From: Clostridia bacterium
GTDB lineage: Bacteria; Bacillota; Clostridia; Christensenellales; CAG-138
Assembly: GCA_017416425.1 (NCBI GenBank)
Contig: JAFQCL010000001.1
Span: 14,291-78,290, forward strand
DNA length: 64,000 nucleotides
Reading direction: 5' to 3'
Position 1 is the first letter of the stretch, and each line of letters opens with the position of its first letter. Below the pieces are notes generated by a model that saw only the letters and a list, made by a program, of their open reading frames with translations, made no database searches and had not been told where the DNA came from. Positions 22,192 through 36,163 of this stretch are shown piece after piece. The translations under genes were made by a program, and so were the position numbers.

Positions 22192-23898
22192 TTATTTATC
22201 GTTACCTGCTTTTTCCTCCTGATGCATTAAAGCGGCATACCGCAATAGCTCTTTGCGGGATGTTACTCCAAGCTTGCTATAGATATTTTTGTTGTGGTAT
22301 TTGAGCGTATTTTCCTTAATGCACAATATCTCTAAAATATCCTTTGCGCCCTCACCTGAGATATATAGGTTAAAAATATTGCGCTCGGTTGGCGTTAGGG
22401 TGAAAAGGTTGTTTAAGAATTGCTTATAAAGTTCAGGATCGACCTCATGCTTTCTCAAATAAGCAAGACGAGAGATCTCAAGCTGCGCTTTTTCATATTC
22501 ATCCTGTGTCTTTGTAAGCTCATTCTGTATACGCAGGCTGTGCTGTTCTTTTTGGCGTATTTCCTCTTCGTGTTCGCGGTCTTTTGCAGCAAGGAATTCA
22601 AACAGGTCGTTGATCTCAAGATATGGGGCCGCTTTAAGCTCCTCATGAGGCGTATTTTTAATAGATTGAAGCGCATCGGTAACCGGGCGCAGATAACGTC
22701 GGCTGATAAATACCGAAGTAAGCAGGCTAACGATTAAAAGCGCTATCACGATGTATATAAGATAAGAAACATCTCCCTTGATAGCCTGATCTAAAAGCTC
22801 CTGTGGCATAAGTATAGCTACCGACCACTTTTCCTCCTCGTAGGGCGATCCATCCGGATATAAACGAATATATTTACTTTTCCCGCCGTACGATCCCGCT
22901 TCCGAGGAGAAACGCTCAAAATCGTCCTTATTTCCGATGCGGGATAGATTCTCGCTCAAGCGGTTGCCGGTGAGATAGTAGTTACCTGCTATTATACCAT
23001 CTGAGGTGCACAGCTCCTCGTCACATGCGGGCGCCATGACGGTGAAAATATTATCGTAAGTACCTCCTTCGGGTGAAAACAGCGATTTAAACATGCGGTC
23101 ACTGACTTCAATGCCGAATATACCAAATACCGTTCCGCTTTCACTTCGCAGTGGTACACAAAGAAGAAATCCTGCTTCGCTGTTGCCTTTTAATGTTACT
23201 CGCCCCGACCAGTAATACAGGCGGGAAAGCGGCAATTCAGGATTTTCCCGAGCTGATTCAATGACTTTAGTGAAGAATTCCTGACCTGAAATATCATATT
23301 CCATATGCCATTGACCTAGCAGCATAATCCCATTATCGCGGGCAAGTTTTGCAGGACCGCGCAGATAATGGAGCTTTACGCCGACGACATCTGTTGAGGT
23401 AGGCTGTGTTTTTTTTATGAATACACCGGCTTTAGCGGTATCGGCGTTTTCAGCATCGGGTGCTATTGTGGCGTCCAGCATTATGAATACGCCTCCGCAA
23501 TAACGACCATTTATGGTGTTTATGAGGGTTGACATATGCTCGGAAAGCAAAGGCTCCAGAATTTCAGGATGGCTGGCCAGATCATCGGCTTGAATTTGGT
23601 TTACAGAAAAGAATGCGTCACAACGTTTTGCAATATCTTCCGCAATATTGATTCCGCTTAGAGAAATATGACCGAAATCATTGGCGATCGTCTGTGAAAT
23701 ATTTGCAAGTTCGGTATTCATATGATTTTGTATAGTCTCCTCACCCTTGCCGGTAATGCCGAAGAGAGTAAGAAGCAGAGTAAAACAAAGAATCAATAGA
23801 ACGGAAAGGGACAGGAAAAAGAGGAGCAATCTGCGATGCAAAGTTGTTCCTTTTATATTTCGCTCTTTTTTCCATAAGGTAAGCGCCTGTTTCAGCAT
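22192..23898 (-). CDS. Membrane-anchored LuxR-family transcriptional regulator with a large extracytoplasmic sensor domain
   Basis: 568 aa. TM1 at aa ~23-47, ~330-aa external domain, TM2 at aa ~377-399, coiled coil at ~435-480. C-terminal LuxR/GerE HTH (TPTERNIFNLYISG...TLKYHNKNIYSKLGVTSRKELL). Confidence 0.8.
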   Translation of the reverse strand: MLKQALTLWKKERNIKGTTLHRRLLLFFLSLSVLLILCFTLLLTLFGITGKGEETIQNHMNTELANISQTIANDFGHISLSGINIAEDIAKRCDAFFSVNQIQADDLASHPEILEPLLSEHMSTLINTINGRYCGGVFIMLDATIAPDAENADTAKAGVFIKKTQPTSTDVVGVKLHYLRGPAKLARDNGIMLLGQWHMEYDISGQEFFTKVIESARENPELPLSRLYYWSGRVTLKGNSEAGFLLCVPLRSESGTVFGIFGIEVSDRMFKSLFSPEGGTYDNIFTVMAPACDEELCTSDGIIAGNYYLTGNRLSENLSRIGNKDDFERFSSEAGSYGGKSKYIRLYPDGSPYEEEKWSVAILMPQELLDQAIKGDVSYLIYIVIALLIVSLLTSVFISRRYLRPVTDALQSIKNTPHEELKAAPYLEINDLFEFLAAKDREHEEEIRQKEQHSLRIQNELTKTQDEYEKAQLEISRLAYLRKHEVDPELYKQFLNNLFTLTPTERNIFNLYISGEGAKDILEILCIKENTLKYHNKNIYSKLGVTSRKELLRYAALMHQEEKAGNDK

Positions 23899-23935: not shown

Positions 23936-25288
23936 TTAATTTATAAAATCGTTTAGCGCGCTTTCAGGGGAAATAGGTTTTCCGGCAAGATAGTTATTGC
24001 GTTCCAAAGTCAAAAGCGCTTTGAAATCACTTTCATAGGCATTGCTATCGGCATCTAGCTGGGCGTAATTGGGAGCGGTAAAAAAGCTGTAGCTTTCATA
24101 CATGGAAAGGACTGCGGTAAGCATTTCCATGATTCGAGTATCCTCAAGCTCTACAAGATGGATAATCATATCCTCTTCAAATGCCTGCTTGGTTACAGGA
24201 AGATAGCCTGTTTTTTCAATAAATTTCATGTTTTGCTCGGATGCGGTGAGCCATTTGATAAATACACAGGCTGCATATTCTTTCTTTTCATCCGACTTTG
24301 CTACCATCAAGCCTCCTCCGCGCTGTAAAGCCGTCTTTGTGCCATTTTCAAACACGGGATACGGCAAAATGTTATAGTCCACAGTCTCTAACGTGCCGTC
24401 CGCATAGGTTATGGTATCGCCGTAGAACAGAATACCTGCGGACGAGCCTGTTGAACAAACCAAATCGCCGGTCTTTGAAAGGTCGGAAGAGTAACCATTG
24501 TAGATTGCGATGCCGCCCTCTACTGCAGGGGTATAAACTGTTTCAAAAATATGCTTGAACTCATCTCCTTTAAGGGAAAGGGTTTCTCCTTCAAATATAC
24601 TTGCGCCAAGCTGTACCATGCCTACCTCGGCAAAATTAAACCAGGAATCGGCAGAATAGAATTGCTTGCCATCGTTTGGCGTATCGGGAGTTTGCGCGTC
24701 TGTCCAATCATAATACATTTTAGAAAGTTCAGATATTCCTTCAAAGGTGGAAAGCAGCTCTGCGTTTGCACCGGTAGCATCGGCAAAACGGTCAAACAGC
24801 GTCTGGTTCAGATATAAAACCTCAGTAGACTTGGCAATCGGGAAAACATATAGCCCGCTGTCCGACAGCCTGCCCTCGTCAAGAAAAGCGTCTACATACT
24901 CCTGCAGTTCAGCCTCGGTAAAGTAATCGTTGAAATTGGCAAGCAGTCCTTTTTCATAGAACTGTATAGCCACTTTGGGATAACCTGTAAATATGTCCGG
25001 CATATCAGGCGCACCCGGGTCGCCATTTGCTATCATATCAAGGCTCTTGTTTAATTCAGAGCTGGACGAAATCGCCGTCACATCGATGACAATGCCTTGC
25101 TCTTTTCCTACTGTGCTATTGAATTGATCGATAAGAACGTCCATGGTCTCCTGCATGTCGCCTCCGTAGTTATGCCACATAGTCAGTGTGACAGGATCCC
25201 TTGGGTCAAGAGGGGAACTGTTTGCACAGCCGGAAAATACACCGAGCAGAAATAGCAGTGTTATGATGAGTGCGAATAATTTTTTCAT
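23936..25288 (-). CDS. ABC-type extracellular solute-binding lipoprotein (family 1, sugar-type), orphan
   Basis: ATG 25288 after GGGAGGAAA. MKKLFALIITLLFLLGVFSGC lipobox. About 450 aa, SBP_bac_1-like. No permease or ATPase adjacent. The tracked ORF has a spurious 94-aa N-terminal extension. Confidence 0.8.
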   Translation of the reverse strand: MKKLFALIITLLFLLGVFSGCANSSPLDPRDPVTLTMWHNYGGDMQETMDVLIDQFNSTVGKEQGIVIDVTAISSSSELNKSLDMIANGDPGAPDMPDIFTGYPKVAIQFYEKGLLANFNDYFTEAELQEYVDAFLDEGRLSDSGLYVFPIAKSTEVLYLNQTLFDRFADATGANAELLSTFEGISELSKMYYDWTDAQTPDTPNDGKQFYSADSWFNFAEVGMVQLGASIFEGETLSLKGDEFKHIFETVYTPAVEGGIAIYNGYSSDLSKTGDLVCSTGSSAGILFYGDTITYADGTLETVDYNILPYPVFENGTKTALQRGGGLMVAKSDEKKEYAACVFIKWLTASEQNMKFIEKTGYLPVTKQAFEEDMIIHLVELEDTRIMEMLTAVLSMYESYSFFTAPNYAQLDADSNAYESDFKALLTLERNNYLAGKPISPESALNDFIN

Positions 25289-25674
25289 ATTTTTCCTCCC
25301 TGAGCATTGCATCCCACCTGTTTTCCCACACCAAAAGCAAAAAAAACGATTAATATTAAAAGTTTTTTCGATTTTCCCACCCTTTTGGCGGTGGCGTGTG
25401 GGGACAAAAGCGGAAATATCGCTTAAATTGAACTCGTAAGCAGGCTCCAAGAGCGGTATAAGGCCTGCCCATTGTGGATGAAAAACGATAGTGGGGTACC
25501 GCAGCATGTTTAGAAATTGTATTGCAAGCATGTGTTTCTGCCCGGACGCGCCAACGACCGCATAAACCACCCTACTATTTTATTATATCATACTATGTTT
25601 ATTGAAGCAATAGTAGATGCTGTCAGCCACCAAAGAACCGCGATTTATAGTATGGAACGGAAGGAGGTACTATT

Positions 25675-26046
25675 TTGGAGAAGAAATTATGTGAAACTGC
25701 AAGTTATAGGATCATATCGGATAAAGAAGGTAATCGCTTTCGTTTCTTTTGCGGCATATCGGGTATTGCGGTGTATACAAGCAACCCTGTTCGTGCTGAA
25801 ATCACCGAGGATGAACTTAGGATGGCTTGGGAGCTTGAGGGTAAGAAACATTTTAATCTGTGTCACAAATGTGAACGCTGGGCAAGCGACATGATGTATA
25901 ATGCGGACGTTTGTGAATGTATAGATTGTGCGCCGTGGGAAAACGAACCTAAATATTGTCACAAATGTGGCAGTGCGCTTTCCACACCCGATATCTTTTG
26001 CCGAAAATGCGGTGCACGCCTTCGATACGGGGAGGTGTGGACATGA
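25675..26046 (+). CDS. Cys-rich soluble protein with a C-terminal zinc ribbon
   Basis: TTG start 7 nt after AAGGAGG. 123 aa, 11 Cys including CHKCERW, CECIDC and CHKCGSAL...CRKCGARL. Stop overlaps the next start (ATGA). Confidence 0.65.
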   Translation: MEKKLCETASYRIISDKEGNRFRFFCGISGIAVYTSNPVRAEITEDELRMAWELEGKKHFNLCHKCERWASDMMYNADVCECIDCAPWENEPKYCHKCGSALSTPDIFCRKCGARLRYGEVWT

Positions 26047-26336
26047 CAGCGGAAAAACTTCAGCTTATAAGACTTGAAAGCATGAAGCAATACGGTTTCG
26101 GATTACAGGCCATGAAAACGATCAAGGTCTGCGGCGCATGCAAAGCTGCGATCTCGGCAGATCAACGTATTTGCAGCGAGTGCGGTCATAAGCTCCCGAA
26201 TAAGACCCTGTATCAGATTTATAAGGCAAGGCACAGAGTCTGTCCCATATGTGAGACTATTGTTCCCGACAGCTGCGAATATTGTCCGCAGTGTGGGAAA
26301 AAGCTTTTGAAACACAAAAGAAACAGTAATATTTAA
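26043..26336 (+). CDS. Double zinc-ribbon protein
   Basis: 97 aa. ATG 26043 after GGAGGTG. CGACK...CSECGHKL and CPICE...CPQCGKKL. Translationally coupled to the upstream gene. Confidence 0.7.
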   Translation: MTAEKLQLIRLESMKQYGFGLQAMKTIKVCGACKAAISADQRICSECGHKLPNKTLYQIYKARHRVCPICETIVPDSCEYCPQCGKKLLKHKRNSNI

Positions 26337-26358
26337 AAACAAAAACGGAGGTTTGTCC

Positions 26359-27225
26359 ATGAGCTTTTTAGAAAGAACGATAAGACGGGCTGTAAGCAAG
26401 GGCGTTAGCAACGCGGTAGGAAACGCGGTGCAGAAGGCTGTAGAGCCAAAGGCAACGGAGCTTGCAAACCAGGCTGCCCAGCACATCGACAACGCAGCGC
26501 AGAGTGTTGCAAGAAGCACAGCACAGCAAAACACGGCCGCGACAAGCGAACTTAGAGGCGCTTTTTCCAATCTTGAGCGCTCGATGCAGGACTACGCTAC
26601 CGAAAGGGCTAAAAATATCAAGATATGCCCGAGCTGCGGTGAGGCTACAGGTGCGGAAAAGAAGTTTTGCCCATCCTGCGGAACAAAGCTGCCTGAGCAA
26701 ACGGTGGCTCAGGGCGCTGTTTGCACAAATTGCGGCAAGCAAAATTCTATCGGTACAAAATTCTGTTCCGACTGCGGAGCAAAGCTGCCCGCGGCTATCG
26801 CTGAGGAACAGGCGCAGGCAGAGCGCAATGCCGCTGTAATGGCTGAGTGGGATAAATACCTTCCGCAATATCCAAAGTGGAATTGTGGAGGATCGGAGTT
26901 TAATATCGAAGAATATGATCCCGGATGTTTTGAGTTCCGCGCATTTTTTAACGGAAACAGCCAGGCGGCACGCAGAGCCGTAGATGCATACAGACAAATT
27001 CTCTTGCAAAACGGATTTAGACAAGCAGGCGAATATCCGTGTATTGAACACTTATATAAGATGGAGAACGGTGTTTGCTATCATGTAGATACAGGAATGT
27101 GCTTTGAAGGTTCTTCCGATAGCCCATCTATTTCGTTTGACACCCGTGAGCCTCGCGGTGGCTTCAACTACGTAAAGCCCGCGCCCAGAAAGAAAACAAG
27201 TTTTAAAGACCTTCTTGGTTTGTAA
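26359..27225 (+). CDS. Double zinc-ribbon protein with an Ala/Gln-rich N-terminus and an alpha/beta C-terminal domain
   Basis: ATG 26359 after GGAGG. CPSCG...CPSCGTKLP and CTNCG...CSDCGAKLP. No TM segment. Confidence 0.75.
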   Translation: MSFLERTIRRAVSKGVSNAVGNAVQKAVEPKATELANQAAQHIDNAAQSVARSTAQQNTAATSELRGAFSNLERSMQDYATERAKNIKICPSCGEATGAEKKFCPSCGTKLPEQTVAQGAVCTNCGKQNSIGTKFCSDCGAKLPAAIAEEQAQAERNAAVMAEWDKYLPQYPKWNCGGSEFNIEEYDPGCFEFRAFFNGNSQAARRAVDAYRQILLQNGFRQAGEYPCIEHLYKMENGVCYHVDTGMCFEGSSDSPSISFDTREPRGGFNYVKPAPRKKTSFKDLLGL

Positions 27226-27243
27226 TTTCAAGGAGAAACCGCT

Positions 27244-27741
27244 ATGAAAAAATTATTTGCGCTTTTGCTTGCTTTGATAATGGTATTCTCCTTTGCCGCT
27301 TGCGGAAACAGTGATAATCCCGATCCTTCGGGCAGCGACAATCCCGGCGTTTCGCAGACGGATGATAGCGGCAAGGAAAATGATAACGGTAGCGAAACTA
27401 ACGGCAGTTCGCAAGATACCGACAGTAGCCAAAAGCCTTATGAGGATGAAACCGGAAAAGAAGCATGGCCGGAAACGGATTTGACAGCGCTTGTTCCCAC
27501 ACCTGCACAGGGTAATGTTCTGCGGAGCAGTCTGAGCGATACTTTTTCAACGATAGAGGTGTCGTGGACATACGATGAAGCACTTGCTTACGTTCAGCAG
27601 CTGAAAGATGCGGGTTTTGGTGATGATATTGTTGAAAAGTTTGAACAGCAGAAAGTAATTAAGAGAACGCATAACGGCGTGGAGATTTATCTTGTATATA
27701 TGGATGATACTTTAACAATGATTACGCTCACGAAAGAATAA
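27244..27741 (+). CDS. Lipoprotein, island family (shared signal/linker)
   Basis: MKKLFALLLALIMVFSFAACGNSDNPDPSGSDNPGVSQTDD. AAGGAG RBS. 165 aa. Confidence 0.8.
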   Translation: MKKLFALLLALIMVFSFAACGNSDNPDPSGSDNPGVSQTDDSGKENDNGSETNGSSQDTDSSQKPYEDETGKEAWPETDLTALVPTPAQGNVLRSSLSDTFSTIEVSWTYDEALAYVQQLKDAGFGDDIVEKFEQQKVIKRTHNGVEIYLVYMDDTLTMITLTKE

Positions 27742-27825
27742 CTCACCCCACACCACGTGCGGTCTGCCTAAGTGCCGACCGCGCCCGTGTGTGCAAATTC
27801 AGAAAAGCGAAATGAGGACAACACT

Positions 27826-28383
27826 ATGAAAAAACTGTTAGCGATCCTACTTGCAGCCATAATGCTGCTCTCACTTGCGGCTTGCGGCAATACCGATAAC
27901 CCCGATCCTTCGGGAACGGACGATCCCGGCGTTTCACAGACCCATGATCAGGGCGCTTTTGAACCGTCGAACACGCCAAATCCACCGAGCAACAACACTT
28001 CTCTTGAAGCCCCATGGTTTGGTTGGAGCGAGGATGATATCAAACCCGATACCGGCTTTGCAGGCATTGAAGCTATGGACAATGCAGGTTGGTTTATTTC
28101 TTTGACAGAACCTCTCACCGAAGATACCTATAAAGCATGGTATGCAAAATTGGTATCAAAGATCGAGAATTTTGCGGACAATAGCGAATATATCATTCAG
28201 AATGTGACGGATTTGGATGCAAGCCTGAACGAGGCGATAAATACATTTAATGCCGGTGGTGGAGCTCTTTACATTATGTTTGAATATAAAGTAGGCGATA
28301 TGACGATTGGCGTTACGACCGGTGTTACAAATTTTGAAGATACCGAAGATGTGCTTTACTTTTATTTGAGAGAAATTGAATAA
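27826..28383 (+). CDS. Lipoprotein, island family (shared signal/linker)
   Basis: ATG 27826. MKKLLAILLAAIMLLSLAACGNTDNPDPSGTDDPGVSQTHD. The tracked ORF starts 54 nt earlier. Confidence 0.8.
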   Translation: MKKLLAILLAAIMLLSLAACGNTDNPDPSGTDDPGVSQTHDQGAFEPSNTPNPPSNNTSLEAPWFGWSEDDIKPDTGFAGIEAMDNAGWFISLTEPLTEDTYKAWYAKLVSKIENFADNSEYIIQNVTDLDASLNEAINTFNAGGGALYIMFEYKVGDMTIGVTTGVTNFEDTEDVLYFYLREIE

Positions 28384-28462
28384 CAAACCCATACCATCAG
28401 AGAGGGTGGCAACCACCGCCAAACTCACATGCGCTTTAAATCAATGAAAGGATTATCGGACT

Positions 28463-29803
28463 ATGAAACGACTATTCAGTATTTTTCTTTCTTTGCTTCT
28501 ACTGTTGTCCATTTTTTCGATAACAGCATTTGCGGCAGAGGAAAACGATATATCAAAATTTGAACTCCCTACACCCAAAGCTCCCAACCACTTCGTATTC
28601 ACCGACGGCGATGCAAAAGAAGGACATCATGATGATTTGAGGATGATCATGGTCGCCGATCCCGAAGTAGCGCTGCTTGCGGCAGAGTACAACCGCGACA
28701 GCGAAGCATTCCGTGAAAAATACGGGCTCTATTACTTTGAGATCGCCATGCAGTACGACGTATCGCTGGACAATGAGGAAAACTGGCAGCACAACGAGGA
28801 GTGGGATACCCAATATTACAACGACGGCATAGGACAAGGTTATCCTTATACAATCATCCGTTCGGAGATGATGGAGGATTTTGAGTTCTTCTGGCTGACC
28901 TATTATGAAGGATCCGATTCTAACACCTTTGTTCCCTACAAGCCCGCTATCCTTACCGAGAAGTTCGTGGGTGACGGCTACGAGAGTGACGTCTACTCCT
29001 TCGACGTGGAAAATCACAGCCTTTACATCCGTTGCCGCTACTATATGGAGTGGGAAACCTTTGATGCCGAAAAAAACGAGATCGGCTCCAAACAGAGCAA
29101 GTTCTCCGACTGGTCGGAAAGTGCAATTTTCGGTAAGAACACCACACAGATCGTTCCCGAAGAACCTACCACATATGAAGCACCCATTATCTCTGATTTG
29201 AAGATCGTTCTTTCTGAAGGCGATGAAAACAGCCATCTGGAATACGTACAGACCACACCCGAATCGGTTTGGCTGGCAAACGTGTATTACTATATGAAGG
29301 ATGAAGGTCAGTTCGATGGTCTTGAAACCCAGGTCAGCATTGACGGCGGCGAGTGGATAGAGTTTGACACGGCAGATGCGGGCGGCGACTGGTGCTTATG
29401 GAATGGCAGCAGAAGCGCATTCAATTTCGATGTTCCCATTGAAGAAAACAGTAACGTTAAGCTCCGCATCCGCTTCACCGGCACTCACGGCCCTTCCGAA
29501 TGGTCGAACGTGCTTGAATTGGGCGGCGGCGGCACACAGGAGATCCCCGGCCAAACGGATGAGCCTACGGACGAAAAGCCGCCCGTGGATGAACCGAATG
29601 AGGACAAATGCTCCCTCTGCGGCTTTTGTCCTGTACCTCTCGGACTGTGCATCTTCATTTGGATCGCTATTGCGCTAGCGGTCATTCTGATTGTTGTTAT
29701 CATCATCGTGATAGCAACCAAAAAGAAGAAATGCCCGAGCTGCAAGACCAAATACGGTAAAAAGGACAAATGCTGCCCAAGTTGCGGTCAGCGACTGAAA
29801 TAA
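28463..29803 (+). CDS. Type I membrane protein: signal peptide, ~370-aa ectodomain, TM helix, cytosolic zinc ribbon
   Basis: Signal peptide ending AFA-AE. TM segment LCIFIWIAIALAVILIVVIIIVIA. Tail KKKKCPSCKTKYGKKDKCCPSCGQRLK. Confidence 0.8.
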   Translation: MKRLFSIFLSLLLLLSIFSITAFAAEENDISKFELPTPKAPNHFVFTDGDAKEGHHDDLRMIMVADPEVALLAAEYNRDSEAFREKYGLYYFEIAMQYDVSLDNEENWQHNEEWDTQYYNDGIGQGYPYTIIRSEMMEDFEFFWLTYYEGSDSNTFVPYKPAILTEKFVGDGYESDVYSFDVENHSLYIRCRYYMEWETFDAEKNEIGSKQSKFSDWSESAIFGKNTTQIVPEEPTTYEAPIISDLKIVLSEGDENSHLEYVQTTPESVWLANVYYYMKDEGQFDGLETQVSIDGGEWIEFDTADAGGDWCLWNGSRSAFNFDVPIEENSNVKLRIRFTGTHGPSEWSNVLELGGGGTQEIPGQTDEPTDEKPPVDEPNEDKCSLCGFCPVPLGLCIFIWIAIALAVILIVVIIIVIATKKKKCPSCKTKYGKKDKCCPSCGQRLK

Positions 29804-29823
29804 CGAAGAAGGAGGAAATTACA

Positions 29824-30442
29824 ATGAAAAAAATTATTTGCTCTTTTATTGGCTATGATGCTGGTATTCAGCCTTGCCGCTTGCGGCAATAGAGACAAAC
29901 CCGATCCTTCGGGCGTAGAGGAACCCCAAGCTTCGCAGCAGCCTCAAACGGATACCCCTGAGCCCGATATTTCCAATGATGCTGGTCAGTAACCGGGCGA
30001 TGAGATGACAATTTCACAGTTCCTTGATGTCTACGGTCTAAGCGAGGATGACCTTAAGCCGGAAAACTTCAAGGAGTTTGGAGAGTTTAATCTGATGGGC
30101 AAGGCAGGCGGAATGTCAAGCATGGGAACTATCGAGGTCAAGGTCGATAAGGAGCAGACCACAGAGGAAGACATGATTGCATGGTATGGCGAGCTGTTCG
30201 GCAAATTGGCAAGCCTATCCGACACAGGCAAGTTATATGAGGATATGCAGGGCGGCATCGAACTTGCAGACGCAGAGGCCGCGATCGACGCAGCGAACAC
30301 CATCACGAGTTTGCCGGCATTTGAATGCTTTTACCCATATCCATTGCCTGATGGCAGAGGTTTTATTCAGCTTAGCGCAAGCTATGTCCCGGAGAGCGGA
30401 GCTTATACCGTGCTTATCTGGGTTGCGGGCTTTATAAGGTAA
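29824..30442 (+). pseudogene. Disrupted paralog of the 27826 lipoprotein (A7 frameshift plus in-frame TAA)
   Basis: ATG 29824 is followed by A7, whereas the intact paralog at 27244 has A6. This puts the lipoprotein signal KKLFALLLAMMLVFSLAACGNRDKPDPSG in the +1 frame. That frame hits TAA at 29990-29992 and then continues as the tracked ORF 30005..30442, which is homologous to the mature part of the 27826 product. Confidence 0.6.
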
Positions 30443-30552
30443 CGACCCTGTCTGCATTAAAGCGGGCATTGAGCCTAATCCCAATTTTACGGTGTAAGCT
30501 TTCAGAGATTACGGCTCAAAAGCACCTGAAAATAAATATTTAGGAGGATAAC

Positions 30553-31569
30553 ATGATGAAAAAAATTATTGTGGTTTTGATAGCGGTAATGATGATTCTT
30601 GCCCTTCCCGCTTGCGGAAGCCTTGAAAAAGTATTGGGAAGCTTACTGCCTCCGCCCTCTGATGACCCGGGAGTGCATTCCGGTCCGGGTAATGAGGATG
30701 AGACGGGAGGAAAAAAGAGTACCCCGGAAGAACGAGAGCAGGCTCTGGCGAATTTGGACAATTATTGGGATAAACTGCGCCTTGAATGGGAATGGGATCA
30801 GGAGGATGCAGAGGGCTATGTCTGGACGATAACCATAGATGAGGTTGCTGTGATCGATATGGTTGGACTTGCAACCGTAACATATGATCTTGACCTGTCA
30901 TGCTCCCATGTGGGACCTACTATGAACGGCGTATACTGCGGAGAATTGGGTATGGAGTATGAAGCGGATCTTAGCGGAGCGATGGCGCTTGCCACCCTTG
31001 CGGGAGGTACGGCCTCATATGATGCGGACGGTTGGTTTGTAAATGATCAGTTTGTGATGAGACTGGTAGAGTATGATGATTTGGTCGAGCACCAGTTTGA
31101 TGCATCCATAACCGCAGGCGCATATCCAGACCTCAGCGCTGAAGAGCAGGAATTCGCCCAAGCTTTTCTTGAGGGACTTCTTGGGGATGTAGGCTCTGGA
31201 GATGAGGATTTTGAGCTTGCAGCTTCTCCTGCATACACATGGTACGATTGGGACACCCATATGACAGCCGGTGATATGTCCGGTTATGTCCAGATGAATG
31301 GGATAGTCGGAGGCGTTGCCAGCGCTTCAGGAGGAGTGGATTCCAGCGGAACTCATAGTCAGGGCGATGCGTACGCCAGTATATTTGGGATGACCTTCAC
31401 CGAGAGATATGATGAGACTATTACAAATCCTTTCCCATACGCTCTTAGAGTTTATGAAACGGGTCAAGTGGTATTTGAGCTCTATTCCTCTACCGGAGGT
31501 CCCATTACGGTGAAATTTTACGGCACTATCGACAGAGTTCCCGTTGAGGATACTCAGATCGTCCCCTAA
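30553..31569 (+). CDS. Lipoprotein, unknown function
   Basis: AGGAGG RBS. MMKKIIVVLIAVMMILALPACG. 338 aa. Confidence 0.8.
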   Translation: MMKKIIVVLIAVMMILALPACGSLEKVLGSLLPPPSDDPGVHSGPGNEDETGGKKSTPEEREQALANLDNYWDKLRLEWEWDQEDAEGYVWTITIDEVAVIDMVGLATVTYDLDLSCSHVGPTMNGVYCGELGMEYEADLSGAMALATLAGGTASYDADGWFVNDQFVMRLVEYDDLVEHQFDASITAGAYPDLSAEEQEFAQAFLEGLLGDVGSGDEDFELAASPAYTWYDWDTHMTAGDMSGYVQMNGIVGGVASASGGVDSSGTHSQGDAYASIFGMTFTERYDETITNPFPYALRVYETGQVVFELYSSTGGPITVKFYGTIDRVPVEDTQIVP

Positions 31570-31649
31570 AGCACAACCTTACTACAGCGCTTATATAAAA
31601 AAGACGCTTTAAAACTGGTTGATTAATAATTTAATAAGGAGAACAAAAA

Positions 31650-32606
31650 ATGAAAAAGATATTAGCTTTATTACTTGTAGCAATGATGTTATTTGCATTT
31701 GCCGCTTGCAGCGATATTGAGAACCCCAAAACCTCACAGCAGCCTGATCAGTCTGCTGATCCTGACAAGACCGCAGCTCCCAATACCGGAAATGAGGCGT
31801 CAAACGGCTTGCCCTCCGGAGACAGCTATGCTGAAGCTTATACCTTCTATTCCGGATTGGTAGATAAGCTTGGCTCCACCATTTCCAATATAGTGGATAA
31901 CAACAACGCACGCCTTGAGGAAGAACAGCCCGATACATATTTTGATGATCCCAGCTACATGATCATCATATATATGCCGTTTTTATCTATAGATATGGCC
32001 TTTACCTCAAGTGTCAGCGAAACGGTTGACCCTGCAAGCATAGTGATGGCTTACTCCTTTATGGGCATTGAGGACGCGGAATTTACCATCACATCTCCGG
32101 GCAATTACAAGATCAGCTACACCTCGGAGGACTGGGAAACCGGTGAAGCGGAAAGCGTAGAGGAGCTAATGCGCTATGATAACGGCTCTATCCGCTATGA
32201 ACAGCGTATAAACGGCGAGTTGGACGAGTATTATGAGTTTGTTGCGCTTGGCCAAGACCGTTATGCGCTTCAAAGCAAGACCAATCGTGCGATCGTGACA
32301 TATAAGGATGGCAAGATCACCGAGGTACTTCATAGCTGGACTAAGTACGAGGAGGACTGGGAAACCGGTGAACTCACCGAATGGTCGGTTTGGTATGATC
32401 CGGAGGCAGACTCCATATGGGGCAAGAGCGGCATAGATGAAAGCTGGGTACTGGAGCTTGAAAGTGAAGGGGCACTGGAGCGTATATACGAGCTAAAGGA
32501 TGGCGTTTTGACCATTTCAGGTCAGACAAGCAATACCGATTGGGAGACCGGAGTGACTACTTTTGAACCCATGGAACCTGTCATTATAGCTCCGCGTGAA
32601 GAATAA
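31650..32606 (+). CDS. Lipoprotein with repeated DWETG motif
   Basis: AAGGAG RBS. MKKILALLLVAMMLFAFAACS. Three DWETG(E/V) motifs. Confidence 0.8.
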   Translation: MKKILALLLVAMMLFAFAACSDIENPKTSQQPDQSADPDKTAAPNTGNEASNGLPSGDSYAEAYTFYSGLVDKLGSTISNIVDNNNARLEEEQPDTYFDDPSYMIIIYMPFLSIDMAFTSSVSETVDPASIVMAYSFMGIEDAEFTITSPGNYKISYTSEDWETGEAESVEELMRYDNGSIRYEQRINGELDEYYEFVALGQDRYALQSKTNRAIVTYKDGKITEVLHSWTKYEEDWETGELTEWSVWYDPEADSIWGKSGIDESWVLELESEGALERIYELKDGVLTISGQTSNTDWETGVTTFEPMEPVIIAPREE

Positions 32607-32741
32607 GCTCAAAAGGCAGCAAGTATTGTAAAAAGAAGCGGATTTGGCCTGAAGGAGTTACAATATCCGCTTCGCTCATAGCCTGCTTCACGGCATAGCC
32701 GTGTGCATAATAAAAATATAAAATATTTGGAGGAAAATGAA

Positions 32742-33164
32742 ATGAAAAAATTTTTAGCCCTGGCACTGGTTCTTATTACCCTTATGACGATATTTGCTTT
32801 TACCGCCTGCGGTAATGCGAATCAAAGAGCGCTCATTGGCACATGGCAGATAGTGGATGAAGAGACTGCCACTGAATATGGTATAGGACTGGAATTTACT
32901 TCCGATGGAAAACTTCGCTATGGCCTTACTGAAGACGTTCTCGCGGGAATAAGCGGCGAAGAAGATGCAGGGAATGAATTTAGCGATGTGATGGAAGGTC
33001 TTGACGCTTTGATGTCCATTGATTATAAGGTCATAAGCGATACCGAGATGGAAATCACCGTCAGCGCGATGTTCGGCCTTGCAAAGGAAACTACTACAGT
33101 ATCTTACTCCCTTGAGGGTGATACCTTGACTTTTGACGGTGCGGTCTATACTCGTGTTAAATGA
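32742..33164 (+). CDS. Small lipoprotein, lipocalin-like (DUF5640-like)
   Basis: ATG 32742 after GGAGGAAAA. Lipobox FTACG. LIGTWQ...LEFTSDGKL...GDTLTFDGAVYTR pattern. Confidence 0.75.
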   Translation: MKKFLALALVLITLMTIFAFTACGNANQRALIGTWQIVDEETATEYGIGLEFTSDGKLRYGLTEDVLAGISGEEDAGNEFSDVMEGLDALMSIDYKVISDTEMEITVSAMFGLAKETTTVSYSLEGDTLTFDGAVYTRVK

Positions 33165-33231
33165 TCGGACTAAGCGGCTTAATTGTCGTTAATGCCAAAG
33201 CGTAAGTACAAAAAGGGAGGATTGATATAAG

Positions 33232-33927
33232 ATGAAGCGAATATTTACGTTACTGCTTGCATTTATTATGCTGGTTTCGCTTTCCGCATGCGGCAATATC
33301 ATGATTTTTCTTCAAAATCCTGAAGTAAGCGGCTCGTTTGAAACTGCTCCAAACGAAAGTATTTCAGAAACTGATAATTACAGTAAAGAAACCGCAAACG
33401 GGATACTTAATACGCCTGAAGCATCTTTGCCGGAGTTGCAGTCTCCCTCTTTGGATCCAACGGATCATATTGAGGATCCTCAACAAACGCCAACCGATGA
33501 ACCTGATACGCTTTGGGATAAACTCTTGGGCTGTTGGTCATCGACAGATGGAGAAAGGTTTGTTTATTTCCTCTATAGTGGTGGGGAACCCGCGTTTTTA
33601 AGTGGGCTCTGGGGGAATCCGATCCCTTATAGACGCGATGCGGGAACGCTTTCCTCCCCTGTTGATTTTGGCGGCGGCTTTTATACCATTTCGCTTACAT
33701 ATCCGCCGGTCTCAGAGGACGCGGCGGATGCGCAGGAACTTGAGCCGCTTCTTTACACACTGGCAATTGATATTTCCGAAATTGAAAACGGCAAAATCCG
33801 TGTTGAAGCGCCGGAAGATATATGGCGTGATTACACTTATGCTGGCGCTGATTACGACACGGCCTATGAGAATTCAGTTTGGGTAAATTACGCCTCATTT
33901 GACGAGATGCGTCTATTATGGTACTAA
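33232..33927 (+). CDS. Lipoprotein, unknown function
   Basis: AGGGAGG RBS. MKRIFTLLLAFIMLVSLSACG. 231 aa. Confidence 0.75.
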   Translation: MKRIFTLLLAFIMLVSLSACGNIMIFLQNPEVSGSFETAPNESISETDNYSKETANGILNTPEASLPELQSPSLDPTDHIEDPQQTPTDEPDTLWDKLLGCWSSTDGERFVYFLYSGGEPAFLSGLWGNPIPYRRDAGTLSSPVDFGGGFYTISLTYPPVSEDAADAQELEPLLYTLAIDISEIENGKIRVEAPEDIWRDYTYAGADYDTAYENSVWVNYASFDEMRLLWY

Positions 33928-34286
33928 ATGGATGGTAGTGGCTGAATGAAGAGGAAGGCAGAATAATTACGTTCACCCAAGACGAGAGTGAGCTTCTCTT
34001 TAGTGAAAGCATGCTTGACTCAGGCGGCGGGCGAGGTTTTGGAAGATTTGACAAGGCATTGTCCTTTAGCGATGAGACTCCCGTTATCTTCGTTGTTTAT
34101 TATCCTGCTATCGACGAAAGCGAACCAAAAGGGCCGCTTCCTCAAACAACAATACGTGTCTATGTTGATATTAACGATCTTTATACAAAAAAAGATTTGC
34201 AATCATGCTTGGTAAAGATGGCGAATGGATCAGGTACCATTTTGTTAATTAGGAGTGAGTAAAAACTCAAGGAGTAATGAATCGAT

Positions 34287-34520
34287 TTGAAAAAAGTATT
34301 GATATTTGCGCTTATGGGTATGCCGGTATTTGCCATTGTGGCATTAGGCGGAAACACTGATATACCATTTGCGAGCGATGATCTTGCTGTTTTTCAGAGC
34401 GACGCTTCAAGTACTATCTTAAAAACTGACGAGCCCACGGGCGATACGAAGATCACATGTGTTATGATAAGCGATTTGCAGACTGAAATTGCCGAAGATA
34501 ATGACGAAAATGAGTATTGA
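34287..34520 (+). pseudogene. Probable decayed lipoprotein paralog (TTG start, lipobox Cys replaced by Gly)
   Basis: Encodes MKKVLIFALMGMPVFAIVALGGNTDIPF. The aligned position of the family AACGNTD lipobox reads ALGGNTD (GGC instead of TGC). Truncated at 77 aa. Confidence 0.3.
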
Positions 34521-34840
34521 ATCAATATTGCATCTATCGTAAGCTTGTCCGGGATTAAGTCTGCGTCAGGTATATATGTTCGATATAGCCTAGGAAGCCG
34601 AGCGGTTTATAATGATGGTGAAACATCTATGACAAGCAGGATATCTATTGAAGGCGCTACAGTATATGAACAATGTGACATACACTTGAATGCAACGCTA
34701 TTTAGGTCGAGTCTAACTGTAAAATGGCGGATATTGAATACAATATTTCAGATGATCCTGCGGACTTTATTTGACTTTATAACTAAAATATGGTAAAATA
34801 AAAAACAATAAAAAATAATATAAGATAGTGAGGTGAGATT

Positions 34841-35455
34841 ATGGCAAGATTTTGTACAGAGTGCGGTAACCGAATAGAGGATGGCGTAGCATTCTGCACT
34901 GCGTGCGGAACTAAAGCTCCCATCGATAATGTTGCTGATACCGTGACTGTTCAGGCCGAAGCTACTATTACACAAAAGGTAGAAACACAGCCGGTTCAGA
35001 CGCCACCGCCGGTGCAGGCAGCGCAGCCGGTTCAAACGCCGCCACCGGTGCAGGCAGCACAGCCGGTTCAGACGCCGCCGCCGGTGCAGGCAGCGCAGCC
35101 GGTTCAAACGCCGCCACCGGTGCAGGCAGCACAGCCGGTTCAGGCAGCTGCGCCTATATACCACCAGCAACAGCAGGCTTATCAATCAACTGCGTCCGAA
35201 GAGGATGCAACCCGCAAGGTCGTAGGCACAGGGGCTTATTTTGGACTAATGTTTCTGTTTGGAATTCCGCTGATAGGCCTTATTGCATGCATAATTATGG
35301 CGTTTGCGCCAAAGAATCGTAATATCAAAAACTATGCTCGCGCAATGCTTATCTGGACGATCATAGGGCTTGTGCTGACAGGTGTTTTAGTTGCTCTCTT
35401 TGTAGCGTTTGCAGATAAGTTAGCGGATTATCTAAGTCAGATGATCTATTCATAA
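34841..35455 (+). CDS. N-terminal zinc-ribbon, Pro-rich repeat, TM membrane protein
   Basis: MARFCTECGNRIEDGVAFCTACGTKAP, then four QPVQTPPPVQAA repeats, then 2-3 TM helices. GAGGTGAG RBS. Confidence 0.8.
   Translation: MARFCTECGNRIEDGVAFCTACGTKAPIDNVADTVTVQAEATITQKVETQPVQTPPPVQAAQPVQTPPPVQAAQPVQTPPPVQAAQPVQTPPPVQAAQPVQAAAPIYHQQQQAYQSTASEEDATRKVVGTGAYFGLMFLFGIPLIGLIACIIMAFAPKNRNIKNYARAMLIWTIIGLVLTGVLVALFVAFADKLADYLSQMIYS
34988..35148. repeat. 36-bp in-frame tandem repeat, 4.5 copies
   Basis: Units at 34988, 35024, 35060 and 35096, plus a partial unit at 35132. Units 2 and 4 are identical. Units 1 and 3 differ at one base. Confidence 0.9.
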
Positions 35456-35568
35456 ATGGGCTTTTTTGGCTATTCTTTTAGCCTGATGGGCAGTTGAACA
35501 AAACATGTGCGTGTTTTTAAAACAGCGGTTTTAAAAAGCCGCATAAACAAAAATAGGAGGAAATTATT

Positions 35569-36105
35569 ATGGCATTTTGTGGAAAATGTGGAACTAAAGT
35601 GGAAGAAGGCGTAAAATTCTGCCCCGTCTGTGGTGGGCAGGTGGCGGCCTCCGCTCCTCAGCAGGAGGCAAGAACTGAGCAGGAAGGCTCTGCGGCAAAT
35701 CAAAACGGTTTCTCTGCAAAGGTATCATCGCTTAACAATACCGCTGATACAACGTCTGAGTTTGATGCAAGCGACATCACTCAGAACAAGTCAATGGCAG
35801 TTCTTGCATACTTGGGCCCTCTTTGCTTCATTCCGATGTTTGCGGCAAAGGAGTCAAAATTCGCACGCTTCCATGCTAATCAGGGACTGGTGCTTCTGAT
35901 TGCAGCCGTGGCATTAGGCATCGCATCGGCGATTCTCAATGCGATCATCCTTGCGATTTCGTGGAGACTGTACTTCCTTACAAGCATCATTTCCTGGGTT
36001 GTCTATATTGCCATTGGCATACTCATTATCCTTGGTATAGTAAACGCCGCAAACGGTAAGGCAAAAGAGCTGCCCGTAATCGGAAAGATCAAGATACTGA
36101 AGTAA
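35569..36105 (+). CDS. N-terminal zinc-ribbon plus DUF4870-like membrane protein
   Basis: MAFCGKCGTKVEEGVKFCPVCGGQV. Membrane module LAYLGPLCFIPMFAAKESKFARFHANQGLVLL plus two more TM helices. AGGAGG RBS. Confidence 0.8.
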   Translation: MAFCGKCGTKVEEGVKFCPVCGGQVAASAPQQEARTEQEGSAANQNGFSAKVSSLNNTADTTSEFDASDITQNKSMAVLAYLGPLCFIPMFAAKESKFARFHANQGLVLLIAAVALGIASAILNAIILAISWRLYFLTSIISWVVYIAIGILIILGIVNAANGKAKELPVIGKIKILK

Positions 36106-36126
36106 GCGTATATTAGCCCCAAAAAA

Positions 36127-36163
36127 GGCGGCGGCAGATGAATAACTTGCCTCCGCCTTTTTG
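36127..36163 (+). terminator. Rho-independent terminator closing the island
   Basis: ggcggcggcag/cttgcctccgcc stem (one mismatch) followed by T5. Confidence 0.6.

Follow-up and report, generated by a model that had tools for sequence, protein, structure and literature searches.

An undescribed cassette of predicted zinc-ribbon proteins and variable lipoproteins in uncultured ruminant-gut Clostridia

Background

Genes that lie close together on one strand may work together, or they may only be neighbours. This question is raised by a gene block in a stretch of 64,000 nucleotides (nt) from a Clostridia bacterium (assembly GCA_017416425.1, contig JAFQCL010000001.1, positions 14,291 to 78,290), which is called the window below and whose own coordinates are used throughout. 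According to the list of open reading frames (ORFs) of the window, the block holds 15 plus-strand ORFs, g01-g15, which span 25675-36105 and encode proteins with CxxC...CxxC motifs among a series of exported proteins. The block is a single copy of an undescribed cassette that is carried by hundreds of uncultured ruminant-gut Clostridia (Oscillospirales). No described system shares the composition of this cassette, and it is new as a gene cassette.

Composition of the gene block

The genes with CxxC...CxxC motifs and the elements that belong to them are the following (lengths in amino acids, aa; TM, transmembrane).

25675..26046, + strand: g01, 123-aa soluble protein with a C-terminal predicted zinc ribbon and an extra Cys cluster (Zn_Ribbon_1, 26.6 bits against a cut-off of 25)
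26043..26336, + strand: g02, 97-aa soluble protein, predicted double zinc ribbon (DZR, 39.4 bits against 27.3)
26359..27225, + strand: g03, 288-aa core cytosolic protein (DZR and Zn_Ribbon_1 matches, 43.7 bits against 25)
28463..29803, + strand: g06, 446-aa type I membrane protein (signal peptide, ectodomain, TM segment, predicted cytosolic ribbon)
34771..34799, + strand: promoter-like site ahead of g14 (TTGACT, 17 nt spacer, TG, TAAAAT; a consensus match only, 10/12, extended -10)
34841..35455, + strand: g14, predicted N-terminal ribbon, Pro/Gln/Val-rich linker and two TM segments (Zn_Ribbon_1, 31.9 bits against 25)
35569..36105, + strand: g15, core membrane protein, predicted N-terminal ribbon and a probable three-TM DUF4870/HOTT domain of the Tic20 superfamily (Zn_Ribbon_1, 30.1 bits against 25)
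36122..36162: bidirectional intrinsic terminator, common to the block and a convergent radical-SAM gene (hairpin of -22.2 kcal/mol, z = -4.47)

The intergenic gaps in the block are -4 to 135 nt, with the sole exception of 320 nt ahead of g14, and a GGAGG-like ribosome-binding site is present at every ORF but the fragment g12. The terminator hairpin is flanked by an A-run on its 5' side and a U-run on its 3' side; it was missed by the consensus scan because its loop has 9 nt. An earlier reading of this DNA, made from the sequence without database searches (the sequence-only reading), had described about 14 co-directional genes closed by a terminator, and the 15 ORFs and the hairpin at 36122-36162 bear this out.

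In the whole 64-kb window there are 7 ORFs of the CxxC...CxxC type, 6 of which are inside the block (Fisher p = 6.6e-4). A scan for the motif CxxC-x(10-14)-CxxC is positive for g01, g02 (twice), g03 (twice), g06, g14 and g15. The curated Pfam ribbon cut-offs are passed by g01, g02, g03, g14 and g15 and missed by g06, and the ribbon cysteines are invariant or at least 90% conserved across the alignments of g03, g06 and g15. We take these domains in the six products as predicted zinc ribbons (Zn_Ribbon_1 PF13240, DZR PF12773 or Zn_ribbon_3 PF13248). The TM scan and the motif scan agree with the three topologies that the sequence-only reading had assigned, namely soluble (g01-g03, in which the TM scan finds no TM segment), type I (g06) and N-terminal ribbon before membrane helices (g14 and g15).

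That reading had recognised no catalytic, transport, ATPase or DNA-binding domain in the block, and none was found with Pfam, NCBIfam, PADLOC and PHROGs. When g03, g06, g14 and g15 were scanned against PADLOC-DB 2.0, only chance-level matches were obtained (LmuB, E = 0.01; PDC-M67B, E = 0.006), the PHROG matches of the block products are restricted to ribbons and signal peptides, and an Rfam search over 21.5-38 kb gave a sub-threshold sRNA match on the terminator and nothing else. Profile-HMM and structure searches, which had been proposed as a check, assigned no member of the block to a characterised function.

Conservation of the cassette

Related loci were collected with two seeds. With g06, searched in species-representative genomes, 39 loci were obtained; with g03 there were 278 loci, of which the best 80 were analysed. 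The carriers are contigs of metagenome-assembled genomes (MAGs) throughout, and the evidence is comparative. All g06-seeded loci come from ruminant-gut MAGs labelled Oscillospiraceae, Acutalibacteraceae, Faecousia, Ruminococcus or 'Clostridia'. According to tblastn and family clustering, the recurring gene order starts with a divergent GerE regulator that has several TM segments (in 21 of the loci); then come a small GerE protein (in 15), a protein of the g03 family (in 19), exported proteins that vary between loci, g06, one or more lipoproteins, and g14 and/or g15.

Among the g03-seeded loci with at least 3.5 kb of downstream sequence, a same-strand g14 or g15 is present in 23 of 27 (g15 in 22 of 27), the same lipoprotein, named lipoA, in 13 of 27, and g06 in 8 of 27. 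A LuxR-family regulator is found in 30 of the 36 g03-seeded loci with at least 2.5 kb upstream. The recurring core is smaller than the block in the window: it comprises g03, one or more lipoproteins, and then g14 and/or g15, under a LuxR-family regulator, and g06 is a frequent, strongly conserved accessory. Conserved co-localisation had been among the checks put forward for the block, and ribbon and lipoprotein genes do stand together in the same order across many species despite differing flanks; since the order recurs with both seeds, the homologs are not scattered.

The subtype of the window, in which a LuxR gene (~560 aa) and a gene for a solute-binding protein (SBP) run divergently from g01-g02-g03 ... 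g14/g15, recurs in loci L047, L050, L051, L052 and L017 and in at least 7 g03-seeded loci, with protein identities of 45-74% and unrelated flanking genes. The nucleotide homology between L014 and L043 reaches from the regulator to g15 and no further. A minimal cassette of four genes (g03-lipoprotein-g14-g15, no regulator) is found in L074, a bare pair of g03 and a g06-like gene stands among housekeeping genes in L045, and some MAGs contain two cassettes on different contigs. The cassette of L051, which is without g06, lies between Bro-N, AbiEi, relaxase and MobC genes (L051:289-4429) and sigma70_r4, HTH_16, TnpW and serine-recombinase genes (L051:16056-18861), and is apparently the cargo of an integrative mobilisable element. 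Directly upstream of the L074 cassette there is also a gene for a 2401-aa surface protein (L074:2723-9928), in which Cna-B-like repeats, a PEPDPK linker and a sortase-type C-terminal signal were read by eye.

Comparison of the window with L044 gives identities of 84.6% for NifU, 81.5% for g06, 67.6% for IscS, 65.7% for g03, 63.5% for g15 and 46.5% for g11, and each of the other lipoproteins either lacks a counterpart or reaches 25-58% identity. The ribbon genes change at the pace of housekeeping genes, and between species the set of lipoproteins is exchanged for another. An origin from phages or plasmids was rejected: there is no relative of g06 in IMG/VR and none of g03 in PLSDB, phage records contain one match to g03, which covers the ribbon only, and PHROGs are negative beyond ribbons and signal peptides.

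Regulator, binding protein and candidate operator

Three features lie on the other side of the divergent intergenic region or within it.

22192..23898, - strand: membrane LuxR-family regulator, 568 aa (GerE, 47.5 bits against 23.5)
23936..25288, - strand: orphan solute-binding lipoprotein (SBP), 450 aa (SBP_bac_8, 95.6 bits against 27, E = 5.8e-27; gene call of L040)
25322..25409, no strand assigned: candidate operator in the divergent intergenic region between the SBP gene and g01 (repeats conserved in six orthologous regions)

The regulator contains TM segments at residues 24-42 and 380-398 around an outside domain of ~330 aa, and a C-terminal GerE helix-turn-helix (HTH) domain. With GerE and SBP_bac_8 above their cut-offs and two TM segments, the divergent membrane LuxR regulator and orphan binding protein of the sequence-only reading are recovered. 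Orthologs of the regulator at 45-64% identity occupy a like divergent position in L047, L050, L051 and L052, and the LuxR-SBP pair is kept beside g01-g03 in at least 10 loci. No permease, ATPase or other transporter gene lies beside the SBP gene, whose neighbours are DUF4430 and NifU genes on one side and the block on the other; the SBP is probably a ligand sensor for the LuxR protein.

Direct repeats TTTCCCAC(A/C)C lie at 25322 and 25373 with a spacing of 51 nt, and the region also has the inverted half-site GTGTGGGGACAAAA at 25396-25409 (GTGGGGA). The repeat columns are conserved in the alignment of six orthologous intergenic regions, and the spacing in L052 is also 51 nt. Three exact copies of TTTCCCAC(A/C)C exist in the window, the third inside g02 on the minus strand (26291-26300). 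We infer that the intergenic repeats may be the operator of the LuxR protein.

Cytosolic and membrane ribbon proteins

The first two genes of the block share 4 nt, at the start of g02 and the stop of g01. Orthologs of g01 (44-58% identity) are found at the equivalent position in L017, L047 and L050-L052, and g02 orthologs (38-59% identity) come after g01 in related loci. The g01 family is narrow (12 clusters), and a PDB sequence search with g01 found nothing.

The g03 family is large, with 1013 protein clusters at 90% identity. The protein consists of an N-terminal amphipathic helix, a helical hairpin, two ribbons and a C-terminal alpha/beta domain of ~120 aa, and the eight ribbon cysteines are invariant in an alignment of 35 homologs. 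Residues 1-16 of its N-terminus (MGFLERAIRRGV...) have the highest hydrophobic moment of the protein (0.79-0.85, shuffled sequences 0.26 +/- 0.14), and this amphipathic helix suggests peripheral membrane binding. The C-terminal domain is modelled by AlphaFold2 (AF2) with a predicted local distance difference test score (pLDDT) above 90 over residues ~160-270. Foldseek found no match to it at E < 0.01 in PDB, a sequence-profile search of g03 against PDB matched the ribbons alone, and the BFVD matches of Foldseek were all to other 'double zinc ribbon' proteins, with low TM-scores. Kinship of the C-terminal domain with the DUF6591-like domain of the lipoprotein g04 was rejected (hhalign probability 5.8%), and a weak likeness of the helical hairpin to PE25 (E = 0.016) was treated as compositional.

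In g14, the linker is encoded by 36-nt tandem repeats (34986-35148) with PVQTPPPVQAAQ units. The repeat number differs between strains, because the protein has 204 aa in the window and 180 aa in the otherwise identical L040. Orthologs of g14 sit ahead of g15 in many loci.

The hydrophobic segments of g15 are at residues 75-93, 109-127 and 140-158, and a conserved loop K..SKFARFHANQG is placed between the first two. HOTT is a recent name for the DUF4870 family, which is linked to Tic20, and its hallmark is three membrane helices, the first re-entrant, with a conserved charged loop next (PMC11628618). The window g15 scores 22 bits against DUF4870 (PF09685), under the cut-off of 25 (E = 1.6e-4), and a precomputed DUF4870 match is recorded, unmarked, on an identical protein. 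Among its orthologs, 11 of 11 match DUF4870 at E <= 0.01 (best 1e-8) and 7 of 11 also match TIC20.

Some related loci gather further ribbon fusions (L013:13422-14423, L030:4868-5848, L011:4792-5907 and L022:3722-4372), among them a ribbon with an AIM24 (DUF124)-like domain, identified by eye, a protein of four TM segments that ends in a ribbon, and helical proteins that have 1-3 ribbons. These proteins seem to have the ribbon in common as a tag and to be unrelated otherwise.

The type I surface protein g06

The g06 product is made up of a signal peptide, a beta-rich ectodomain of ~350 aa, the invariant juxtamembrane Cys motif CxxCGFCxVPxxxC, a TM segment (~391-409), KKKK and the tail ribbon. 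This ribbon scores 15.6-17.6 bits against the Pfam cut-off of 27; its four cysteines are at least 90% conserved in 40 homologs, and precomputed PF13248 or PF12773 matches exist on some homologs. The protein is 69-86% identical across 39 species. On the outer side of the TM segment, a Cys-rich motif C-x2-C-G-x-C-P-V-(x)-P-L-G-x-C-x-F-I-W (window 29594-29662, residues ~378-400) is invariant in the 40 homologs and kept in P0262, a relative at 32% identity.

The ectodomain family includes 339 representative relatives, and in some of them the TM segment and ribbon are swapped for SLH domains, dockerins or fn3 repeats; because such relatives carry these modules, the ectodomain is a genuine cell-surface module. 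It is probably Fn3-like according to its model, in which tandem FnIII matches have TM-scores of ~0.16, the AF2 model being poor (pLDDT 56.8). A PDB profile search with g06 was empty.

More than half of the related contigs L001-L039 end within or beside g06. These assembly breaks are perhaps due to the high conservation of g06, compared with its surroundings, among co-occurring species.

Lipoprotein genes as variable cargo

The remaining genes of the block encode lipoproteins or their remnants.

27244..27741, + strand: g04, 165-aa lipoprotein (lipobox; DUF6591, 18.3 bits, under the cut-off)
27826..28383, + strand: g05, 185-aa lipoprotein (lipobox; no family match)
29824..30442, + strand: g07, lipoprotein pseudogene (frameshift and in-frame stop)
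30553..31569, + strand: g08, 338-aa lipoprotein (lipobox)
31650..32606, + strand: g09, 318-aa lipoprotein (lipobox)
32742..33164, + strand: g10, 140-aa small lipoprotein (weak DUF5640, 16.5 bits against a cut-off of 28.5)
33232..34262, + strand: g11 and g12, one frameshifted lipoprotein gene (231 aa and an 83-aa fragment)
34287..34796, + strand: g13 and the next ORF, degenerate remnants (signal-peptide-like N-terminus, no lipobox Cys)

The lipobox Cys is present in seven ORFs (g04, g05, g07, g08, g09, g10 and g11) and absent from g13. A complete bacterial lipoprotein signal, i.e. a basic n-region, a hydrophobic core and the lipobox Cys within ~25 residues, is found in these seven ORFs (in g07 after frameshift correction) and in the SBP. 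The sequence-only reading had counted seven to nine lipoprotein genes or remnants of one lipoprotein family. Seven lipobox ORFs and real remnants were found; the gene at 34287 (g13), which had been included, has no lipobox, and the notion of a single family has to be given up. In all-against-all BLASTP, similarity is confined to residues ~1-60, with two weak exceptions (g05/g07b, 31% over 67 aa; g05/g09, 39 aa). What the lipoproteins share is a signal peptide and an Asp/Pro/Gly linker, and the DNA repeats detected in the block cover the signal-peptide region only.

Relatives of g04 are found in 4 loci (35-40% identity), and a lipoprotein of the same cassette in L047 matches DUF6591 at E = 3.3e-10. 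The likeness of g05 to proteins of other loci is restricted to the signal peptide and linker, and g08 has no relative in any fetched locus and an empty PDB sequence search. Sequence searches with g09 gave no family and no PDB match, and its relatives at ~30% identity are in L011, L035 and L037. Relatives of g10 (51-58% identity) stand directly 3' of g06 in L010, L022 and L028. There is neither a family match nor a homolog in other loci for g13.

Three lipoprotein genes in the block are decayed (g07, g11/g12 and g13). In g07, an A7 run directly after the ATG (29827-29833) shifts the frame, and an in-frame TAA follows at 29990-29992; its split calls (45 and 145 aa) are identical in three independent assemblies, and tblastn with g05 covers both pieces in one frame. 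Because the TAA adds to the A7 frameshift, this looks like decay and not phase variation. A 352-aa homolog in L044 aligns to g11/g12 in frame 1 of the window with its residues 5-236 and in frame 3 with residues 236-317. As cargo, the lipoproteins are interchangeable and turn over fast, and in this strain they are partly pseudogenised.

A proposed trans-envelope cassette as the best explanation

The explanation that we prefer, with moderate confidence, is a conserved, LuxR-regulated trans-envelope cassette with a ribbon protein at the inner face, integral ribbon proteins in the membrane and lipoproteins at the outer face. Two observations support the envelope location of the products, namely their topology and the joining of g06-type ectodomains to SLH, dockerin or fn3 modules. 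In such a cassette, the SBP and the outside domain of the LuxR protein would sense an extracellular ligand, and the LuxR HTH would activate the operon via the TTTCCCAC(A/C)C repeats. The products of g15 and g14 would form the integral membrane core of an assembly, on whose inner face g03 would be docked by its amphipathic helix and by contacts of ribbons with each other or with partners. The outer face would consist of the g06 ectodomain and the lipoproteins, and its components would be swapped under selection by outside agents, for instance phages, bacteriocins, host surfaces or dietary surfaces. The purpose may be surface adaptation or protection against phages or bacteriocins.

Several points weigh against this explanation. 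The g06 gene is not essential to the core, as it is missing from most g03-seeded loci (present in 8 of 27) and from L051, and six loci have no recognisable upstream regulator. Ribbon proteins are abundant near the loci (about ten in L022), so that the clustering may partly be a habit of the lineage and not the mark of one machine. With their ordinary Sec or lipoprotein signals, the exported proteins do not require a dedicated partner. The Fn3 assignment of g06 is weak because the pLDDT of its model is only 56.8, and some binning errors among the MAG contigs are possible.

Sister loci with UG26 reverse transcriptases

In at least 12 orthologous loci, the slot of g03 is taken by a 171-aa protein whose first ~55 residues are g03-like. 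It matches PADLOC RTasCOG2852 over its full length, with a score of only 30 bits, and is followed by an intact UG26 reverse transcriptase (RT; RT_UG26 E = 1.9e-169, YSDD motif). In 16 loci a cytosolic 5'-nucleotidase gene is inside the operon. A compact form, L043:6310-12576, contains the small GerE protein, the 171-aa protein, the UG26 RT, the 5'-nucleotidase, g06, a lipoprotein and g15; other loci of this RT type are L003, L004, L009, L010, L014, L016, L024-L027 and L036. ORFs of 59 aa between the RT and g06 genes (L010:2742-2921, L014:4368-4547 and L026:9770-9949) are the N-terminal stump (MEKLKKLTILHSNDMHGDF...) of a deleted 5'-nucleotidase. A different conserved ORF of 59 aa, which precedes the small GerE gene in the RT-type loci, is probably non-coding, and its conservation is uninformative because these loci are 96-98% identical overall.

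The only partner reported in the published survey of UG26 is a COG2852 protein (9 of 35 members); the survey mentions no envelope genes and calls the defence role of the group 'inconclusive' (Mestre et al. 2022, PMC9226505). The sister loci resemble the surveyed ones in encoding a full-length RT_UG26 and a partner, and differ in that g06, a lipoprotein and g15 share an operon with the RT, an envelope context of UG26 that is absent from the survey (PMC9226505). The window itself is without an RT, and no RVT_1 or PADLOC RT match was found among its products. A diversity-generating retroelement, considered because an RT gene lies next to that of a surface protein, was rejected: the RT matches UG26 and not the models of such elements, and the loci contain no template or variable repeats, direct repeats of at least 30 nt beyond signal-peptide regions being absent from L010, L014 and L004.

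In L004, L009, L010, L026 and L043, the DNA from regulator to RT is 95-98.6% identical across MAGs assigned to different species (e.g. L043:5745-8656 and L010:1-2912). In the same pairs g06 is ~86% identical and the flanks are unrelated. Such near-identity suggests that the segments were recently exchanged or recombined, or that it is an artefact of binning.

The presence of a UG26 RT and a 5'-nucleotidase in sister loci opened a defence-related reading. Here the cassette would be an envelope-anchored antiphage or anti-bacteriocin system, in which the lipoproteins and g06 detect or block the agent, the ribbon proteins of the membrane, the Tic20-like g15 among them, transduce the signal or act as membrane effector, and a cytosolic slot takes alternative modules, either g03 or a nuclease-fold protein with the UG26 RT. 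Apart from the RT pair and the nucleotidase, it agrees with the one cassette that is mobile-element cargo beside AbiEi, with the rapid turnover of cargo including pseudogenes, with several cassette copies per genome, and with the fact that UG/Abi RTs are mostly defence genes (PMC9226505). However, the window itself has no RT, nuclease, nucleotidase or PADLOC match, the role of UG26 is inconclusive as cited above, and the low score of the 171-aa protein does not help. The cassettes sit among housekeeping genes instead of defence islands, IMG/VR and the phage and plasmid collections give no relatives beyond bare ribbons, and control by an SBP is unusual for defence. We regard this reading as unlikely.

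Other explanations

A second alternative, to which we give a similarly low probability, is that no common machine exists and the locus is a recombination or insertion hot-spot for fast-evolving exported-protein genes, beside which ribbon genes are frequent simply because they are numerous. The middle of the locus indeed differs in almost every species, three of its genes are pseudogenes in the window, many related MAG contigs break in or beside g06, unrelated ribbon architectures gather there too (fam10, fam17 and fam23), and lipoprotein likeness is limited to signal peptides. Yet the variable part is bracketed in 22-23 of 27 loci by orthologous g03 and g15, not by any ribbon genes. Little space separates the genes, a cassette may have no more than four of them, the regulator is retained while the chromosomal context changes, and purifying selection on the ribbon genes is clear.

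It is rather less probable that the cassette is an aid to insertion or assembly, in which Tic20-like g15 and g14 would place or hold the lipoproteins and g06, with g01-g03 as cytosolic chaperones. The DUF4870 and TIC20 matches of the g15 orthologs favour it, as do the precedents of MamF-like HOTT proteins, which magnetosome organelles require to form and to function, and of plastid Tic20, which imports proteins (PMC11628618); g15 is also the most constant partner of the variable exported proteins. On the other hand, the HOTT family is uncharacterised outside magnetosomes (PMC11628618) and the window g15 stays under the Pfam cut-off (22 against 25 bits). Standard Sec or lipoprotein signals are present on the cargo, and Pfam revealed neither an ATPase nor another source of energy in the locus.

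Signalling of the sigma/anti-sigma type is the least probable of all. The predicted ribbons (the g06 tail, g14, g15 and g01-g03) would bind or release a small LuxR/GerE HTH factor according to what is sensed outside, which agrees with the structural likeness of the LuxR/GerE HTH to sigma region 4, with an 87-101-aa GerE protein that is first in the operon of 15 g06-seeded and 24 g03-seeded loci and also matches Sigma70_r4 models, with the classical anti-sigma layout of cytosolic zinc domain, TM segment and outside domain, and with the receptor-like single-pass architecture of g06, but the small GerE gene is absent from the window subtype, the ribbons are CxxC knuckles of 20-25 residues and not ZAS domains (inspection of the g14 and g15 N-termini found no HxxxCxxC), and no sigma factor gene was found among the island products and immediate flanks that were scanned.

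Comparison with known systems

Anti-sigma factors of the ZAS type and RsgI-type sensors resemble the cassette in layout only (cytosolic metal-binding N-terminus, membrane span and outside sensor), together with the small HTH gene that adjoins many sister loci; the cassette is without ZAS motif, sigma factor or sequence similarity to them.

TcaA of Staphylococcus aureus, which is involved in glycopeptide sensitivity, has an N-terminal zinc ribbon, one TM segment and an extracellular domain. Like g14 and g15, this Firmicute envelope protein places a cytosolic C4 ribbon before membrane helices. Membership of g14 and g15 in the TcaA family was rejected on the score of NCBIfam NF053815, which is 12.5-14.7 bits against a cut-off of 550 and covers the ribbon region only; no homologous outside domain is present.

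Ltp-type superinfection exclusion proteins and the lantibiotic immunity proteins NisI and SpaI are exposed Gram-positive lipoproteins, which vary between strains and are sometimes carried on mobile elements. They function by themselves or together with ABC transporters and do not involve ribbon proteins, and the cassette lipoproteins show no sequence or PHROG similarity to them beyond signal peptides.

The HOTT/DUF4870 proteins MamF, MmsF and MmxF (PMC11628618) share with g15 the form of a small three-helix membrane protein, and the orthologs of g15 match PF09685. Unlike these proteins, g15 has an N-terminal ribbon and belongs to a Gram-positive lipoprotein operon with no magnetosome context. 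It is probably best filed as a ribbon-bearing HOTT protein.

Elsewhere in the window, a gene at 3379-6198 encodes a 939-aa protein, unrelated to the block, in which a 5TMR-LYT membrane sensor is fused to a SpoIIE/PP2C phosphatase and to a kinase domain of the HATPase_c_2 anti-sigma type. No type VII secretion genes turned up among ten large ORFs that were scanned outside the block.

Significance

Among the protein designs of Firmicutes that have no explanation, short zinc ribbons joined to membrane helices are one of the most frequent. For these proteins the cassette supplies concrete candidate partners (g03, g14, g15, a lipoprotein and a LuxR-type regulator) together with a candidate operator. 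The sister loci suggest a new envelope context for UG26, whose partner shares a putatively membrane-seeking N-terminus with g03. A bolder and doubtful possibility is that the cassette is an unrecognised envelope-anchored immunity platform of Gram-positive gut bacteria, with a Tic20-like ribbon core (the 2-TM ribbon protein being optional), swappable surface detectors or blockers, and a docking slot, set by the common amphipathic N-terminus, for either g03 or a nuclease-fold protein with a UG26 RT. If true, this would be the first function for the ribbon-TM proteins of Firmicutes, for HOTT proteins outside magnetosomes, and for UG26.

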